DNA of 64,000 nucleotides from NCBI GenBank assembly GCA_022447825.1, contig JAKUTY010000001.1, forward strand, positions 127,777 to 191,776, given 5' to 3'. Below the pieces are notes generated by a model. It was not told the DNA's origin. It worked only from the letters and a program-made list of their open reading frames with translations, and made no database searches. Below, piece after piece: positions 18,539 through 64,000 of this stretch. The translations under genes were made by a program, and so were the position numbers. Position 1 is the stretch's first letter, and each line of letters begins with the position of its first letter. The stretch is from SAR202 cluster bacterium (lineage in GTDB: Bacteria; Chloroflexota; Dehalococcoidia; Lucifugimonadales; UBA826).

Positions 18539-19579
18539 CTAAATAATCAGCATCGCATCACCAAAACTGTAAAATTTATAATTATTTTTAACAGCCACTT
18601 TATAGGCATCAAGAATAATGTCTGTAGATGATAATGCTGAAGTTAACATTAATAACGTAGATTTTGGAAGATGGAAATTGGTAATCAGTCCATCTGCTAT
18701 TTGAAACTCATAACCTGGAGTAATAAATATGTCAGCCCAACCTGTTCCACCTTTAATATTTTCATAACCTCCTGAAATATCAGCTACATTTTCTAATAAA
18801 CGTAAAGCTGTTGTACCAACAGAAATGACTCTTCTACCCTCATTTTTAGCATTTTTAATTTTTATAGCTGCCTCATCGGTTAATTCCCAATACTCCGAGT
18901 GCATTTGATGATTTTCTAAATTTTCATCCTTAACTGGCCTAAAACTATCCCATCCAACATGTAATGTCACAAACAGAGTCTCAATTTTTTTAAGTTTGAT
19001 TTGCTCTAAAAGACTTTGAGTAAAATGCAATCCAGCTGTTGGCGCTGCAACACTACCTTCATGTTTTGCATAAACAGTTTGATAATTATCTGACGTACCC
19101 ACTGATTTTTTTATATAAGGAGGTAACGGCAATTCTCCCAACTTATAAATCAAACTATCGTCATCTATCCGAATAATTCTAGAACCTGAATCATTCACTT
19201 GCTCAACAACTCCATGAATCTGATTCTGTTGATTGCCTATAACAAATTTTGAACCTAACCTCATTCTTTTACCGGGCTTCACTAAAGAAGTCCATAAACC
19301 GTCTTCGATTTTGCTAAGCAATAAAATTTCAATCGGTTTTAATGATTTTTTATCAGTTCCGTAAAGTCTCGCTGGAAACACTTTAGTGTCATTAAACACC
19401 AATAAATCACCTTCTTGAAGAAATTTTAATATTTCAAAAAATTTAACATGATTTAAATTGCCAGATTTTTTATCCAAAACCATCAATTTACAATGATCTC
19501 TAGGTTCAGCAGGAAATTGAGCTATAGATGATTGAGGTAAGTCATAATTAAAATCTGATGTTTTGAATTTGCGCGCCAT
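18539..19579 (-). CDS. queA: S-adenosylmethionine:tRNA ribosyltransferase-isomerase
   Basis: QueA-type N-terminus MARKFKTSDFNYDLPQSSIAQFP. The ORF-track TTG start at 19609 overlaps ubiE; ATG 19579 is the more likely start. Confidence 0.9.
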   Translation of the reverse strand: MARKFKTSDFNYDLPQSSIAQFPAEPRDHCKLMVLDKKSGNLNHVKFFEILKFLQEGDLLVFNDTKVFPARLYGTDKKSLKPIEILLLSKIEDGLWTSLVKPGKRMRLGSKFVIGNQQNQIHGVVEQVNDSGSRIIRIDDDSLIYKLGELPLPPYIKKSVGTSDNYQTVYAKHEGSVAAPTAGLHFTQSLLEQIKLKKIETLFVTLHVGWDSFRPVKDENLENHQMHSEYWELTDEAAIKIKNAKNEGRRVISVGTTALRLLENVADISGGYENIKGGTGWADIFITPGYEFQIADGLITNFHLPKSTLLMLTSALSSTDIILDAYKVAVKNNYKFYSFGDAMLII

Positions 19580-19583
19580 GAAA

Positions 19584-20303
19584 TTACTCGTTTTTTTGAC
19601 CCACAACAATAGCTACCGTACCAAAAGCCAATTTCTTCACTACCGGTTTCTTAAAACCTTTTTTCGTCATCAAAACAGCTAATTGTGTAGAAGTTAAAAA
19701 ATTAGAAACTGATTGAGGTAAATAAGTATACGCTTCACGGTCACCTGCAAAAATCGAACCAATTCTAGGAGTGATTTTTTCAAAATACAGTGGAAATAAT
19801 CTCGACATAATCTTCCCTTCTGGTTTCACTATTTCTAATATAACTAAATTGCCTCCAGGAACTAAAACTCGCAATAATTCTTCTAAAGCTTTAGATAAAT
19901 CTACAAAATTCCTAACTCCAAATCCGATAGTAATAGATTCAAAACTGTTATCTGCAAAAGGTAATTCGTGAGCATCTGCAACTACTGGAACAAATTTTTT
20001 ATCAAAATTTCTTTTTTCAGATTTAATTTGACCTATATTCAACATTTCAACAGAGAAATCTAAACCAACTACTTTATTTGCAATTTTTTGGTTTAAAATT
20101 TCAAAAGCAAAATCTCCTGTTCCTGTAGCAACATCTAAAAACATTCCTGTTTCTGATTTTTTCAGATATTTTGTTGCTTTTTTTCTCCATGAATAATGCA
20201 TTCCCGCAGTCATAATAGTATTCAATAGATCATATCTCCCAGAGATTCTATTAAACATATTCGATACAAATCGTGACTTATCTTTTCCGCGTAAATTAAC
20301 CAC
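19584..20303 (-). CDS. ubiE: Demethylmenaquinone/ubiquinone C-methyltransferase
   Basis: 239-aa UbiE/MenG family protein with SAM motif FLDVATGTGD. Confidence 0.85.
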   Translation of the reverse strand: MVNLRGKDKSRFVSNMFNRISGRYDLLNTIMTAGMHYSWRKKATKYLKKSETGMFLDVATGTGDFAFEILNQKIANKVVGLDFSVEMLNIGQIKSEKRNFDKKFVPVVADAHELPFADNSFESITIGFGVRNFVDLSKALEELLRVLVPGGNLVILEIVKPEGKIMSRLFPLYFEKITPRIGSIFAGDREAYTYLPQSVSNFLTSTQLAVLMTKKGFKKPVVKKLAFGTVAIVVGQKNE

Positions 20304-58638: not shown

Positions 58639-59223
58639 ATGTCAACAGATTTAGACACAACAGAATCGAATCAAAACATCACATTTGAAAACGATCGTGA
58701 AAAAAAAATATACGAACAATGTCTAAAAATATGTGGGCAAACAAACTTAAATGTAAAAAACACACCAGAATTTCAAAAAGAATTGTATGAAAAATGCCGA
58801 GATATACTAAAGGCTTCTAATATACCTCTCACTCAACCAAGAGTTAATCTGCTGATAATTTTGATGATGTATCAAAAGCCATTAACGGTCGAGGATATTA
58901 TCCGACTTTCAAATGGACAAATAGCAATCTCTTCAATTTATAGAAATATTAATGACCTAAAAGATAAAAATATCCTAGATGAATTCCAAACCCCCGAAAA
59001 CACTAAAGTAATTTGTTTATCTGGTATTGACGAGGATCACCACCATCATATTTTTTGTAAGTCATGTGGATCAATTAATGATATTGAACTTGATAGCTCA
59101 TTTGAAAAAGCTATTGCAAAAGAAATTAAAAAAATCGAATCCATTTACAATGTAACAGTGGATTCTCATTCATTAGAACTTTCAAGCGTTTGTAATCAAT
59201 GTCAATTGACTAACTCACATTAG
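58639..59223 (+). CDS. zur: Fur-family metalloregulator, probably Zur, with ~55-aa N-terminal extension
   Basis: 194 aa. Fur core with HHHH-IFCKSC and CNQC (two CxxC pairs). Divergent from znuA. The extra N-terminal segment contains C28, C32 and C53. Confidence 0.7.
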   Translation: MSTDLDTTESNQNITFENDREKKIYEQCLKICGQTNLNVKNTPEFQKELYEKCRDILKASNIPLTQPRVNLLIILMMYQKPLTVEDIIRLSNGQIAISSIYRNINDLKDKNILDEFQTPENTKVICLSGIDEDHHHHIFCKSCGSINDIELDSSFEKAIAKEIKKIESIYNVTVDSHSLELSSVCNQCQLTNSH

Positions 59224-59978
59224 TCACAATATTTATTAATCCAATCCCAAAGCATACGAAATCTACATTTTTGATTATGATCACTTTGATCAATTACAGG
59301 TCTTATTGTACGGGTATAAGAACCAATTACCTGTAAATCAGATCTTTTCTCATCCCAGTTCCAGTTTAGACCCTCTGATGTTAAAAAAACTTGTTCACAA
59401 ATTTCTCTTGTCACTGGGACTGCTTTATTAAATCTTTTAGACCAAGAAGAACCGCCAAACAACCAGAATTTATCCCATAAATTTTGGTCTGACATTGCAC
59501 GTCTAACATGTGCATTGATTGCAAACCTATCCATCAATAAAGAATCTAAAGAAGAATCAACTGATTTGATAATCTGATCAATATGCAAATACCCTATAAA
59601 ATAAAACCCAAATTCGTTTTGAAACTTGTTATTTCTCCAAGACTGTAATCTTGATAAAAACAACAAAAAATCACCTCTTTGAACAGTTTTTAAAGAGCTA
59701 GCCCGAGGATTCACTTCACAATTATCTCCGTAAGTAAAAGTATCGAATTCAGGATCACTGTGCATTGTTTTACCCCAAAATCTTTCAGGAATAAATTCCA
59801 TTAGATCATTTTCAGGAAAATTAAAAGATTTTAACTGTTTATACTGAATTCCAAATAATGGATCTAATTCCCTGTCTTCAGGGATAGGGATAAATTCAAA
59901 TGTTCTATCATCAAAAATAGGGCTACAAAAACTATGGCTAGCATTTGATCCGACATTAACTACAAATACTCTACTCAT
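59220..59978 (-). CDS. Conserved-looking hypothetical protein (252 aa), translationally coupled to queG
   Basis: Its ATG overlaps the queG TGA (ATGA at 59975-59978). Motifs: VFVVNVGSNASH, SPIFDDRTFEFIPIPE, HSDPEF, TYGDN, RGDFLLFLSRL. No family can be confidently named without a search. Confidence 0.7.
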   Translation of the reverse strand: MSRVFVVNVGSNASHSFCSPIFDDRTFEFIPIPEDRELDPLFGIQYKQLKSFNFPENDLMEFIPERFWGKTMHSDPEFDTFTYGDNCEVNPRASSLKTVQRGDFLLFLSRLQSWRNNKFQNEFGFYFIGYLHIDQIIKSVDSSLDSLLMDRFAINAHVRRAMSDQNLWDKFWLFGGSSWSKRFNKAVPVTREICEQVFLTSEGLNWNWDEKRSDLQVIGSYTRTIRPVIDQSDHNQKCRFRMLWDWINKYCD

Positions 59979-61120
59979 ACACTCACATTTTGGTTGTCAT
60001 CACAAAAACCAATAGCCAAATTTACTTCTTGTAAAACATCTTCATCATTTTCATTTTCTAAAGCTTGCTTTAAACAATTAATAGCTTCAACTCCTCCAAT
60101 TTGTCCAAGAGCCCAAGCTGCATGTGATTTAAGCAAATTATTTTCATTAAGTAATATTTCTTTCAAAGGCTGAACAGCATCAGGATTTTTATTATTACCC
60201 AGAGCAACACAAGCATTTCTTTTCAATCCAATTAATTTTGTACGCTTAACAGGACTGTTTTTATACCTTTTACTAAATTCAGCTTGATCCATTTCTAATA
60301 TTTGAATTAAATCTGGTGTTGAAAATCCTGGCCTCTGTCTAAATTCAATAGAACTTCCTTTTTGAGCTTTTCTATTTACTGGACAAACATCCTGACAAAT
60401 ATCACACCCAAAAACCCAATCACCCATTAATGGCCTTAGATCAACAGGAATATTTCCTCTTAATTCTATAGTTAAATAGCTAATACATTTTTTATTATCA
60501 ATTTCATATGAATCATTTATAGCACCAGTAGGACAGGCATCGATACAACGAACACAACTTCCACAAGTTTTATTTAAAGGAGAATCATTAACTAAATCAA
60601 CATCCAAAATCACCTGAGACAAAAAAAACCAAGACCCGTATTTCGCATTCAAAATATTGGTATTTTTACCTACCCAACCAAGCCCAGACCTTCTAGCTGC
60701 TGCACGGTCATTCATAGGACCATCGTCAACAAAAGTTCTAGTATTAACTTCTGTATTTAATATATCGGGTAGTTTTTCACATAAAATTTTCAATCTTTTT
60801 TTGATGACATTATGGTAATCATCACCCCAGCTATATCTAGCCATTTTACCTTTCAATGAATTTGTGGGATCAGGCTCATCACCAAGATAACTAGTCAGAA
60901 GTGAAATAATCGATTTGGCACCTGGTAAAAGAATTTCGGGATGATTCATTTTTTTTACTCTTTCTTCTGTATACCAAGATAATCCATCCATTTTTCCAGA
61001 ACGAATTCGTTCAAGAGCAGCTTTCTCGTCATCTAAAAATGGCTTGGCATCAGTGATAGCCACTTCATCAAAACCAATTGATTTAGCAAATTCTTTTATT
61101 TGATTTTCAATATCAGCCAT
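59975..61120 (-). CDS. queG: Epoxyqueuosine reductase (cobalamin/4Fe-4S)
   Basis: 381 aa. Two ferredoxin-type motifs (CGSCVRCIDACP, CDICQDVCP) and a C-terminal HEAT-like repeat region. Confidence 0.9.
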   Translation of the reverse strand: MADIENQIKEFAKSIGFDEVAITDAKPFLDDEKAALERIRSGKMDGLSWYTEERVKKMNHPEILLPGAKSIISLLTSYLGDEPDPTNSLKGKMARYSWGDDYHNVIKKRLKILCEKLPDILNTEVNTRTFVDDGPMNDRAAARRSGLGWVGKNTNILNAKYGSWFFLSQVILDVDLVNDSPLNKTCGSCVRCIDACPTGAINDSYEIDNKKCISYLTIELRGNIPVDLRPLMGDWVFGCDICQDVCPVNRKAQKGSSIEFRQRPGFSTPDLIQILEMDQAEFSKRYKNSPVKRTKLIGLKRNACVALGNNKNPDAVQPLKEILLNENNLLKSHAAWALGQIGGVEAINCLKQALENENDEDVLQEVNLAIGFCDDNQNVSV

Positions 61121-61193: not shown

Positions 61194-61238
61194 CAATTTT
61201 TGAATATCATTTTATTGTTCTTAATGGAGAAAAAACAA

Positions 61239-62372
61239 ATGGTCAAATTTCGAGAATTAAGAAGAACGTACGGATTTGATGAAGTAGCAATTTCTCCTGG
61301 TGTAATTACAGTCAACCCAGAAATGACCGACACAAGTTTTACGGTTGGTGAAATTTCAATAAACATTCCTATCATGGGCTCTGCTATGGATGCAGTTGCT
61401 AGTCCAAGTTTCGCTGGGGCAATGCATCAGCAAGGGGCACTAAGTGTAATGAATTTGGAAGGCGTCCACTCAAGATACGATAACCCTCAAGAAGCAATTG
61501 ACGAAATTGCTCAGACGCCTAAGGCTGAAGTTACTTCTGTAATGCAAAAAATTTACTCCTCTCCACTAAGAGAAGATTTAATTGAAAAAAGAATTAAAGA
61601 AATTAAAGCTACCGGTTCTGTTTGTGCAGTCTCTGTTACACCTGCAGCGACTAAAAAATTGTCTCCACTAGCAGTTGAAGCTGGTGCAGATATCTTAGTT
61701 GTTCAATCTACCGTGACTACTGCAAGGCACTCATCTAACAGTGTCCAAGGTCTTCAATTTCCAGAATTACTAAAAATGGTTGATGTACCAATATTGGTTG
61801 GTAACTGTGTAGGGTATGAAGTGGCCATGGAAATCATGGAAACAGGGGTACACGGTGTACTCGTAGGCGTAGGACCTGGAGCTGCATGCACAACTCGTGA
61901 GGTAACAGGAGTTGGAATCCCTCAAGTTACAGCTACTATGGACTGTGCCCAAGCAAGGGATGATTATCAAAATAAAACAGGTCGTTATGTTCCAATTATT
62001 ACCGATGGTGGAATTAGAACGGGTGGCGAATTATGCAAAGCTATCGCATCCGGAGCTGATGCTGTAATGATTGGTACACGATTAGCTCAATCTACTGAAG
62101 CACCCGGAAAAGGAGTCAACTGGGGAATGGCTAGTCCTCATCCTGCATTACCGAGAGTAACTAGAGTTGATGTCGGAACAAAAGGGTCTCTAGAACAATT
62201 ATTTTATGGGCCTTCATCAGTATCAGATGGGACTCAAAACCTTATTGGAGCTTTAAAAGCATGTATGGGAATGGTTGGAGCTTTAAACATTCAGGAAATG
62301 CATGAAGCTGAAGTAATTGTAGCCCCATCAATTAAAACTGAAGGAAAACATTATCAATTGGGGTTATCTTAA
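61239..62372 (+). CDS. IMP dehydrogenase-family protein lacking the CBS/Bateman insert (GuaB3-like)
   Basis: 377 aa from ATG 61239 (GGAGA SD 8 nt upstream; the ORF-track TTG at 61200 is likely too long). TIM-barrel IMPDH-like motifs GVGPGAACTTREVTGVGIPQ and DGGIRTGGELCKAIASGADAVM. Confidence 0.8.
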   Translation: MVKFRELRRTYGFDEVAISPGVITVNPEMTDTSFTVGEISINIPIMGSAMDAVASPSFAGAMHQQGALSVMNLEGVHSRYDNPQEAIDEIAQTPKAEVTSVMQKIYSSPLREDLIEKRIKEIKATGSVCAVSVTPAATKKLSPLAVEAGADILVVQSTVTTARHSSNSVQGLQFPELLKMVDVPILVGNCVGYEVAMEIMETGVHGVLVGVGPGAACTTREVTGVGIPQVTATMDCAQARDDYQNKTGRYVPIITDGGIRTGGELCKAIASGADAVMIGTRLAQSTEAPGKGVNWGMASPHPALPRVTRVDVGTKGSLEQLFYGPSSVSDGTQNLIGALKACMGMVGALNIQEMHEAEVIVAPSIKTEGKHYQLGLS

Positions 62373-62376
62373 CTTT

Positions 62377-63216
62377 TTAAGTTAAATGTATAGATAAAAC
62401 TCTATTGTTCTGAGATAAGTCTTTAATTATTGCAGTTCTAGCATCCGGGAAATGTGTATCAGCAATTTTCAATACTTCTTCTGATTGAGATGGGTCTATT
62501 TCTATGAATATATGTCCATTATTATTTAACTTCTCTGAACAATTCCCAATTAATTTTCTAATATATTCAAGGCCATCACTACCACCATCTAAAGCTATAT
62601 GAGGTTCTTTTTTTACTTCGGGCTGTAAGTGTTCTATTTGATTACTAGGAATATAAGGTGGATTCGAAACTATTACATCTACCTTCTCATCTAATACATC
62701 TAATAAATTACCCTGTTTCAGATTAATCCTGCTAAACACGTCATTCATTTTTGTATTACTTTCAGCCACATGTAACGCATCAACACTAATATCTGTAGCA
62801 ATAATTTTCGCTAGTGGTAAATTCACCGCTAAAGCGATTGCTATAGCCCCACTGCCTGTTCCTACATCAACTATTTTTAAAGGGTTTTCTTTAGCTATTT
62901 TAATTACTTCATCAACCAATGTTTCTGTTTCCTGCCTAGGAATTAAAACAGCAGAGGTTATTTGAAAATCAAGTGAATAAAATTCTCTAGTTCCAGTGAT
63001 ATAAGAAAGGGGTTCGTTAGCAAGTCTTCTTTGAACTAATTCAGCAATATCATTTTCTTGTTTACTATCTAAAATATTTTCTAAGTTAGAAAACATAGTA
63101 GCTCTATCAATCTTCAACACATGTCTTAATAAAATTTCAGCCTCTAGGCGGGAATCTGGAGAACCACTTTTCATTAACAGTTCACCTGAAATATTTAAAT
63201 TATCCTTTATTTTCAT
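62377..63216 (-). CDS. prmC: Release factor glutamine N5-methyltransferase
   Basis: 279 aa with SAM motif [11 protein letters not shown] and the NPPY motif (SNPPYIP). Overlaps prfA by 4 nt. Confidence 0.9.
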
Positions 63217-64000
63217 AAACCTGAATTTTCTAATTTATAGGCCTGTTCTTCTTGTACTAATGCCTCAATAAACTCCAGTAAATCGCCATCAAGCACTTGT
63301 TCTAGATTGTAGCTAGTCAAATTAATTCTATGATCCGTAATCCTGCCTTGAGGAAAGTTATAAGTTCTAACTCTTTCCGACCTATCTCCAGAACCGACCA
63401 TTGATCTTCTAGAATCTGTAATTTCTTGTTGTTGTTTTTCTATCTCTTGTGCCAATAATCGAGATCTAAGAACTGCCAAAGCTTTCTCTTTATTTTTATG
63501 CTGAGATCTTTCATCCTGACAAGTCGTCACCAAACCTGAAGGAATATGAGTAATTCGAATTGCAGTAGCAACTTTCTGAACATTTTGCCCACCATGACCA
63601 CTTGCATGATAAACATCTATCTGAAGATCCTCGGAAGCAAGCTCTACATCCACTTCCTCCGCTTCAGGCAAAACAGCAACTGTTGCAGCAGATGTATGAA
63701 TTCGGCCACTAGATTCAGTAGCAGGTACACGTTGAACCCGATGAACACCACTTTCATGTTTTAATTTGCTATAAGCTTGGTCACCATTTACTTGAAAAGT
63801 TACTTCTTTAATACCGCCAATCCCTGTTTGTTTAGTATCAATAACGTCTAATTTCCATTCGAGACGTTGGGCTAACCTCGAATACATTCGAAACAAATTA
63901 GACGCAAAAAGACCAGCTTCTTCACCGCCTGTCCCAGCTCGTATTTCAATAATTACATTCTTATCATCATTAGGATCAGAAGGAACGAGAGCTAGTTTCA
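63213..64000 (-). CDS. prfA: Peptide chain release factor 1; 5' end beyond the window
   Basis: GGQ motif ([11 protein letters not shown]) and the RF1-type PAT tripeptide (RVPATES). The frame stays open upstream of the ORF-track TTG to position 63998 (reads ...[23 protein letters not shown]). Confidence 0.92.

Follow-up and report, generated by a model that had tools for sequence, protein, structure and literature searches.

The Nmad3 gene and its junction with queG

Queuosine at the wobble position of tRNA tunes translation, and few bacterial groups in the dark ocean are as abundant as SAR202. We analysed a stretch of 64 kb from a SAR202 cluster bacterium (contig JAKUTY010000001.1; the whole stretch is called the window here), in which queG, the gene for the last enzyme of queuosine formation, is followed by a gene of the Nmad3 family. 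The Nmad3 domain family is already catalogued; described below is its conserved operon with queG in SAR202. The pair and its junction are laid out as follows (aa, amino acids; ORF, open reading frame).

59220..59978, minus strand: stand-alone gene of the Nmad3 family, 252 aa, placed second in the queG operon (ORF list; Pfam PF18754)
59975..59978, minus strand: ATGA junction of the queG stop codon and the Nmad3 start codon (read from the sequence)
59975..61120, minus strand: queG, for a cobalamin- and [4Fe-4S]-dependent tRNA epoxyqueuosine(34) reductase of 381 aa, the first gene of the operon

Read on the minus strand, the end of queG (...gtg agt gta tga) overlaps the beginning of Nmad3 (atg agt aga), whose start codon is ATG. 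An earlier note on this DNA had described a 252-aa ORF with an ATGA overlap onto queG, and both the coordinates and the minus-strand sequence agree with that description. At its 3′ end, Nmad3 overlaps a convergent Fur-family ORF (58639..59223, plus strand) by 4 coordinates. The overlap with queG indicates co-transcription and little beyond that; scans for promoters and terminators gave no signal exceeding that of shuffled controls. Because it has 301 full-length homologues and 937 cluster representatives, the ORF at 59220–59978 is evidently a real gene and not a chance ORF.

The upstream partner is, judged by its sequence, a genuine epoxyqueuosine reductase. Its product is a TIGR00276 equivalog (346 bits against a cutoff of 200), contains the domains QueG_DUF1730, Fer4_16 (double [4Fe-4S]) and C-terminal HEAT repeats (HEAT_2), and matches Bacillus subtilis QueG (PDB 5D08) over residues 4–370 with an E value of 1.8e-65.

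Family membership and conserved residues

Pfam assigns the 252-aa protein to PF18754 (Nmad3, 'nucleotide modification associated domain 3') with 68.9 bits against a cutoff of 27 (E = 6.8e-19, residues 5–192), which bears out a resemblance that the earlier note had suggested. Only positions 3–195 of the 247 in the hidden Markov model are aligned; therefore, the C-terminal third has diverged. In a wider alignment that reaches 29–45% identity and takes in Heimdall and Thorarchaeota members and an Nmad3–Nmad2 fusion, the window protein is colinear over its full length with recognised Nmad3 members, and a member of this alignment is named 'Nmad3 family putative nucleotide modification protein' by NCBI. 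With the rest of the family it shares the motifs H-x-D-P-E-F, G-D and N-A-H as well as C-terminal Arg residues. It differs in its surroundings, pairing with queG at a core-genome locus in a window that lacks Nmad2, the usual partner. Nmad families are known only from computational annotation and recur in DNA-hypermodification and anti-phage contexts; the domains were reportedly first defined in a 2013 paper in NAR.

The 301 homologues are full-length proteins of about 252 aa, the full-length ones all carry PF18754, and each of the 120 listed has an E value of 7.8e-80 or lower. All homologues whose organism is given come from Chloroflexi or SAR202. Two genomes stand nearest: one assembled from a metagenome and assigned to an uncultured Chloroflexi bacterium (94% identity), and one from a single SAR202 cell (83%). 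When 1.84 billion cluster representatives were searched with a profile, 937, each standing for a 50%-identity cluster, were recovered at E ≤ 1e-3, and 130 of these reached E ≤ 1e-30.

An alignment of 31 sequences (around 50% identity) contains 56 invariant columns, and the motifs quoted in the earlier note (NVGSNASH, SPIFDD..FEFIPIPE, HSDPEF, TYGDN and GDFLLF) were all found, on its most conserved columns. Across the wider alignment, P20, F27, Y46, H73, D75, P76, D103, L111, N155, H157, G176 and S180 are invariant, and conservation reaches at least 90% for N8, N12, E77, F78, T82, G84, D85, R223 and R226. The resulting set (His73-x-Asp75-Pro-Glu77, Asp85, Asp103 and Asn155-Ala-His157), together with many invariant Arg and aromatic residues, resembles a catalytic or metal-binding pocket, and we infer that the ligand may be a nucleotide or nucleic acid.

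Other searches added little. The protein matched no NCBIfam model, and a sequence search of solved structures in the PDB gave no match below an E value of 0.5; in PHROGs, the single match was phrog_34025 (function unknown; E = 5.6e-8). A phage origin was considered and ruled out: tblastn against phage records and a scan of IMG/VR both returned no relative, and Nmad3 is therefore not a phage gene. In a survey of fusions, Nmad3 was joined only to Nmad2, to an N-terminal domain resembling Nmad2 or to a second Nmad3-like half, and to no enzymatic domain of known function. Four proteins (P0189, P0209, P0217 and P0318) carry N-terminal extensions of 195–280 aa that have no Pfam match; one type of extension (motif EPNYETGTYN...YYVVGYY) resembles a second Nmad3-like half, and the other (motif FFGPCKK.IR) resembles Nmad2. 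A literature search found no relevant paper on Nmad3 or PF18754, and none that names queG together with SAR202.

Nmad3 follows queG at most loci of SAR202 and Dehalococcoidia

Linkage was counted from both sides. In a set centred on Nmad3 (80 species-representative genome loci, 76 of them with enough upstream sequence), 58 of the 76 have an adjacent queG, which lies immediately upstream in the same orientation in 56, 0.7 kb away in one and divergent in one (L065). In a set centred on queG (80 metagenome loci fetched through QueG at 54–99% identity, 76 of them evaluable), Nmad3 lies directly downstream of queG in 62 of 76. The distance from the queG stop to the Nmad3 start is between −17 and +40 nucleotides (nt) in nearly all cases, and ATGA or GTGA overlaps are frequent among the related genomes. 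Recurrent linkage to a queuosine gene, on whose absence the earlier note would have dropped its proposal, is thus present in both sets.

The genes around the pair are far less constant. The genes immediately downstream of Nmad3 at 71 loci fell into 42 clusters. Beyond queG, an IMPDH-like gene of opposite orientation is kept in only 31 of 49 loci, at variable distance from queG. The pair itself occurs in four flank contexts: prmC / IMPDH-like / queG / Nmad3; cpn60 / dcd / queG / Nmad3 / EVE; trmI / DUF2203 / queG / two inserted genes / Nmad3 / EVE; and the divergent arrangement of queG and Nmad3 in L065. Across SAR202 and Dehalococcoidia, queG is the sole constant neighbour of Nmad3. The two-gene queG–Nmad3 operon is probably ancestral in this group, in which it is widely retained. 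A mirror-tree comparison of Nmad3 and QueG gave r = 0.83 and a partial r of 0.43, the highest among the Nmad3 pairs; an unrelated control pair reached a partial r of 0.74, and the result is only weakly informative.

Several loci have further features of their own. In a deep-branching Dehalococcoidia lineage (L167, L169 and L061), a gene for an EVE domain, a PUA-like reader of modified bases, is convergent to Nmad3 with overlapping 3′ ends (L167:4747–5331, L169:4777–5358 and L061:6747–7328, all on the minus strand), and in L167 and L061 the dCTP deaminase gene dcd lies directly upstream of queG. A Dcm methyltransferase gene beside Nmad3 in L062 and L066 looks like part of a restriction-modification cassette inserted between Nmad3 and an epimerase gene, and it was given no weight as evidence. 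The bins of three Nmad3 loci carry the labels Rhodospirillaceae, Nitrososphaerales and Nitrospinota (L015, L079 and L080). The first is probably mis-binned, because it is nearly identical to the Dehalococcoidia locus L017; the other two have no queG, and the taxonomy of their bins is unverified.

Predicted structure

The Nmad3 protein is predicted to form a compact alpha+beta domain, and its AlphaFold2 model is confident (mean pLDDT 88.6, pTM 0.88). The strongest Foldseek matches in the PDB and BFVD, all weak, are mostly PUA-like barrels that bind or process modified bases. At the top of the PDB matches stands the N-terminal domain of McrB bound to DNA containing 5-methylcytosine (m5C; E = 0.025), and others are ZmASCH, the N4-acetylcytidine (ac4C) amidohydrolase YqfB and the N-terminal domain of ATP sulfurylase; the viral matches in BFVD are ASCH and DUF3850 proteins (best E = 0.014). 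Likeness to the PUA-like superfamily (ASCH, EVE and YTH domains, for example in ZmASCH, YqfB, the McrB N-terminal domain and THYN1) amounts to a weak match at E ≥ 0.014, and these domains are some 100 residues smaller than the Nmad3 protein. Among the enzymes that contain PUA domains are those of archaeosine formation, whose target is 7-deazaguanine in tRNA. We treat a PUA-like reader or enzyme of modified bases as a lead suggested by the model and not as an assignment.

A possible accessory to QueG

How, then, might the product of a gene fixed behind queG relate to queuosine? The window also holds the gene for the preceding step:

18539..19609, minus strand: queA, whose product forms epoxyqueuosine, the substrate of QueG (Pfam PF02547 Queuosine_synth, E = 1.8e-125)

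The presence of queA in the window shows that the normal substrate of QueG is available; on the same ground, the idea that Nmad3 replaces QueA was ruled out. queA lies in a run of overlapping minus-strand genes and overlaps a gene for a UbiE/COQ5-type methyltransferase (19584–20303) by 26 nt.

The reading that we favour, tentatively and at somewhat less than even odds, is that, as a dispensable helper of QueG or as a processor downstream of it, Nmad3 recognises the 7-deazaguanine base at position 34 of the tRNA. Elsewhere in the family, Nmad3 occurs beside or fused to Nmad2, with several such cases among defence-type genes. Under this proposal, the SAR202 protein would have lost its Nmad2 partner, become fixed and co-expressed with QueG in a core-genome operon, and been recruited to a lineage-specific accessory role in the final step of queuosine formation. 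There it would recognise the bulky epoxyqueuosine or queuosine base at position 34 and either present it to QueG or process it further, being helpful to QueG yet dispensable. The candidate pocket residues would fit hydrolase-like or metal-dependent chemistry on a nucleotide or nucleic acid. A stronger version, which we think unlikely, is that Nmad3 partners QueG physically, binds the epoxyqueuosine (oQ) or queuosine (Q) base of tRNA and either channels oQ-tRNA to QueG or turns Q or oQ into a further derivative that is undescribed in bacteria.

If a role as QueG partner were true, it would give the Nmad3 family its first biochemical function, and it would imply that the defence-type Nmad2–Nmad3 modules act on modified bases of the 7-deazapurine type or similarly bulky ones. 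A conserved gene tied to the last enzyme would also be a lineage-specific twist on a pathway deemed complete. Such a gene would further offer an experimental handle on the Nmad families.

A number of observations weigh against a role beside QueG. The linkage to queG was found only inside one class (Dehalococcoidia/SAR202), and shared ancestry therefore inflates the counts. Nmad3 is missing from 14 of the 76 queG-centred loci (around 18%); for each of these, the closest QueG relatives (61–78% identity) are linked to Nmad3, which implies about nine independent losses or displacements. The overlap of queG and Nmad3 is not special, as 4-nt overlaps are common in this compact genome: they occur in five same-strand neighbour pairs of the window, prfA/prmC among them. 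Unrelated genes found behind queG at other loci share the same 4-nt overlap, so coupling to queG need not imply queuosine chemistry. queA lies 40 kb from the queG/Nmad3 pair and is not clustered with it. Searches of Pfam, NCBIfam and PDB sequences showed no homology of Nmad3 to known enzymes of the queuosine pathway; set beside Tgt, QueA, QueC/D/E/F, QueG/QueH, GluQRS, Qng1/DUF2419 and QueK/QueL, its sole likeness is the operon with queG. Distant Nmad3 proteins (36–45% identity) mostly adjoin Nmad2, in either gene order, and none lies beside queuosine genes. Foldseek gave no significant match against the PDB or BFVD (best E values 0.025 and 0.014, TM 0.2–0.4), and an hhalign comparison of Nmad3 with a three-sequence EVE profile returned a probability of 4%. 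The earlier note had gone as far as to suggest a step or salvage activity in queuosine or 7-deazaguanine chemistry; this found no support beyond the adjacency to queG within one class.

Loci where queG lacks Nmad3

The loci without Nmad3 speak to the main rival explanation, namely that the protein is a housekeeping enzyme of nucleic-acid repair or base sanitation (acting, for example, on deaminated or abnormal DNA bases) with no role in queuosine formation. The end of a constitutively expressed queG operon would then be a convenient slot for low-abundance maintenance genes. Consistent with this idea, sister SAR202 lineages that keep this gene order (prmC, IMPDH-like, queG and then GGT or 2-hydroxyacid dehydrogenase) carry other genes in the slot, which, where synteny is kept, lies between queG and the downstream GGT or 2-hydroxyacid-dehydrogenase genes. 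In L157 (4134–4754) it holds a family-4 uracil-DNA glycosylase (PDB 1UI0, E = 1e-21), and in L139:4122–4643 and L138:1950–2471 a DUF1643 gene. Each of these overlaps the queG stop by 4 nt, as Nmad3 does; they are positional analogues of Nmad3 with no homology to it. DUF1643 presumably has a fold like that of uracil-DNA glycosylases, for which searches of Pfam and PDB sequences gave nothing in support. The slot of L155 (4150–6999) is taken by a 949-aa fusion of a DnaQ exonuclease and a DinG helicase, and likewise in L156, L159 and L164. A repair role would also be in keeping with the DNA m5C-binding domain at the head of the structural matches, with the nuclease- and helicase-rich islands in which the wider Nmad3 family sits, and with 4-nt overlaps being generic in the genome. 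Each displacement, however, occurs in a single lineage, possibly by chance insertion, so interchangeability with base-repair enzymes is anecdotal, and in the other exceptions the slot behind queG is empty or occupied by GGT. Nor does hitch-hiking alone readily account for a pairing that has outlasted at least four rearrangements of its flanks, one of them an inversion after which queG and Nmad3 were still neighbours. No homology to a known glycosylase or repair family came to light in Pfam, NCBIfam or PDB sequences. On balance we regard a repair role as somewhat unlikely. Were it nevertheless correct, and Nmad3 positionally interchangeable with uracil-DNA glycosylase, the protein would represent a new fold for base surveillance.

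Distant Nmad3 proteins and Nmad2 modules

Away from queG, Nmad3 is typically half of a module. A Heimdallarchaeota Nmad3–Nmad2 pair (L081:7001–8648) stands among HerA-like, BglII, NOV_C and PDDEXK (PDDEXK_4) genes, and a deltaproteobacterial pair (L172:5001–6478) among DEAD/MZB helicase, AAA_15/21 and SLFN_AlbA genes. A third (L171:4230–5636) is flanked by transposase genes, and in P0243 the two domains are fused. Two Dehalococcoidia loci, L074 (5998–7473) and L077, likewise have Nmad3–Nmad2 pairs to which queG is not adjacent. One distant Nmad3, for which no Nmad2 is annotated, stands upstream of a SIR2_2 gene, and another is solitary. No Nmad2 homologue was found in the 64-kb window or in the queG-linked loci. 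These modules share with the window clade the common Nmad3 domain, and the models of Nmad2 and Nmad3 both weakly resemble PUA-like readers (the Nmad2 model, pLDDT 85.3, has Foldseek matches to YTH, EVE/THYN1 and ASCH); the window clade differs from them in having QueG as its partner and in its housekeeping context (prfA, prmC and queG). Homology between Nmad2 and Nmad3 was considered and rejected, as hhalign gave it a probability of 0.4%.

Such modules raise the prospect that the window gene is a domesticated or relict half of an Nmad2–Nmad3 defence or nucleic-acid-modification module, that its product still acts on foreign or modified DNA or nucleotides, and that its position behind queG is a historical accident fixed in SAR202. 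The fusions, the pairs in either order with the gene company just described, the Nmad3 near SIR2_2 and the two Dehalococcoidia pairs away from queG would all suit this origin, as would the presence of an Nmad2 protein in a defence system that has been validated by experiment (supplement of PMC13092281). We nonetheless consider it quite unlikely. The queG-linked clade is highly conserved, with its 56 invariant columns at around 50% identity, and most SAR202 species have Nmad3 at a fixed core-genome locus by prfA/prmC, unlike patchy, island-borne defence genes. The whole window is devoid of Nmad2, no viral or phage relative was found, and PADLOC gave no match for the window protein, nor for the Heimdall Nmad3 and Nmad2, the fusion or L077.

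The structural matches bear on one more alternative, in which Nmad3 would be a hydrolase for the salvage or turnover of modified nucleosides or nucleotides set free from tRNA (such as Q or oQ nucleoside or monophosphate), by analogy with the ASCH-fold ac4C amidohydrolase YqfB or with Qng1. Weak similarity to ASCH enzymes including YqfB, the conserved His/Asp/Glu/Asn constellation and co-expression with a queuosine enzyme could all be accommodated. We judge it very unlikely: queA and queG act at the level of tRNA, which points to synthesis of Q in situ over salvage of queuine, Nmad3 has no linked gene for queuosine transport or salvage, and the structural similarity does not reach significance. 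The abundance of invariant Arg suggests that the ligand is a polymer or rich in phosphate, but does not discriminate among the hypotheses.

Other genes of the window

The remaining genes around the pair are listed here.

58639..59223, plus strand: Fur-family regulator, probably Zur, 194 aa (PF01475); adjoins znuA and ABC transporter genes and is convergent to Nmad3
61200–62372, plus strand: IMPDH/GMP-reductase-family gene, 390 aa, divergent from queG; no CBS-domain match in Pfam
62377–63896, minus strand: prfA and prmC, with a 4-nt overlap (ATGA-type coupling)

In the Fur-family protein, the Fur domain spans residues 63–181 behind an N-terminal extension of about 50–60 aa, and the protein scores under every NCBIfam cutoff for Fur, Zur and PerR. 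The earlier note had called this gene zur and placed its stop in a 4-nt overlap with Nmad3. The overlap is there, whereas the name is plausible but unproven: PF01475 and the neighbouring znuA speak for it, and the NCBIfam scores fall short. The gene lies downstream of Nmad3 only in the closest relatives (L001 and L002) and stands outside the queG–Nmad3 unit. The prfA ORF is probably cut by the end of the window, measuring 227 aa from a TTG start against about 356 aa in relatives.

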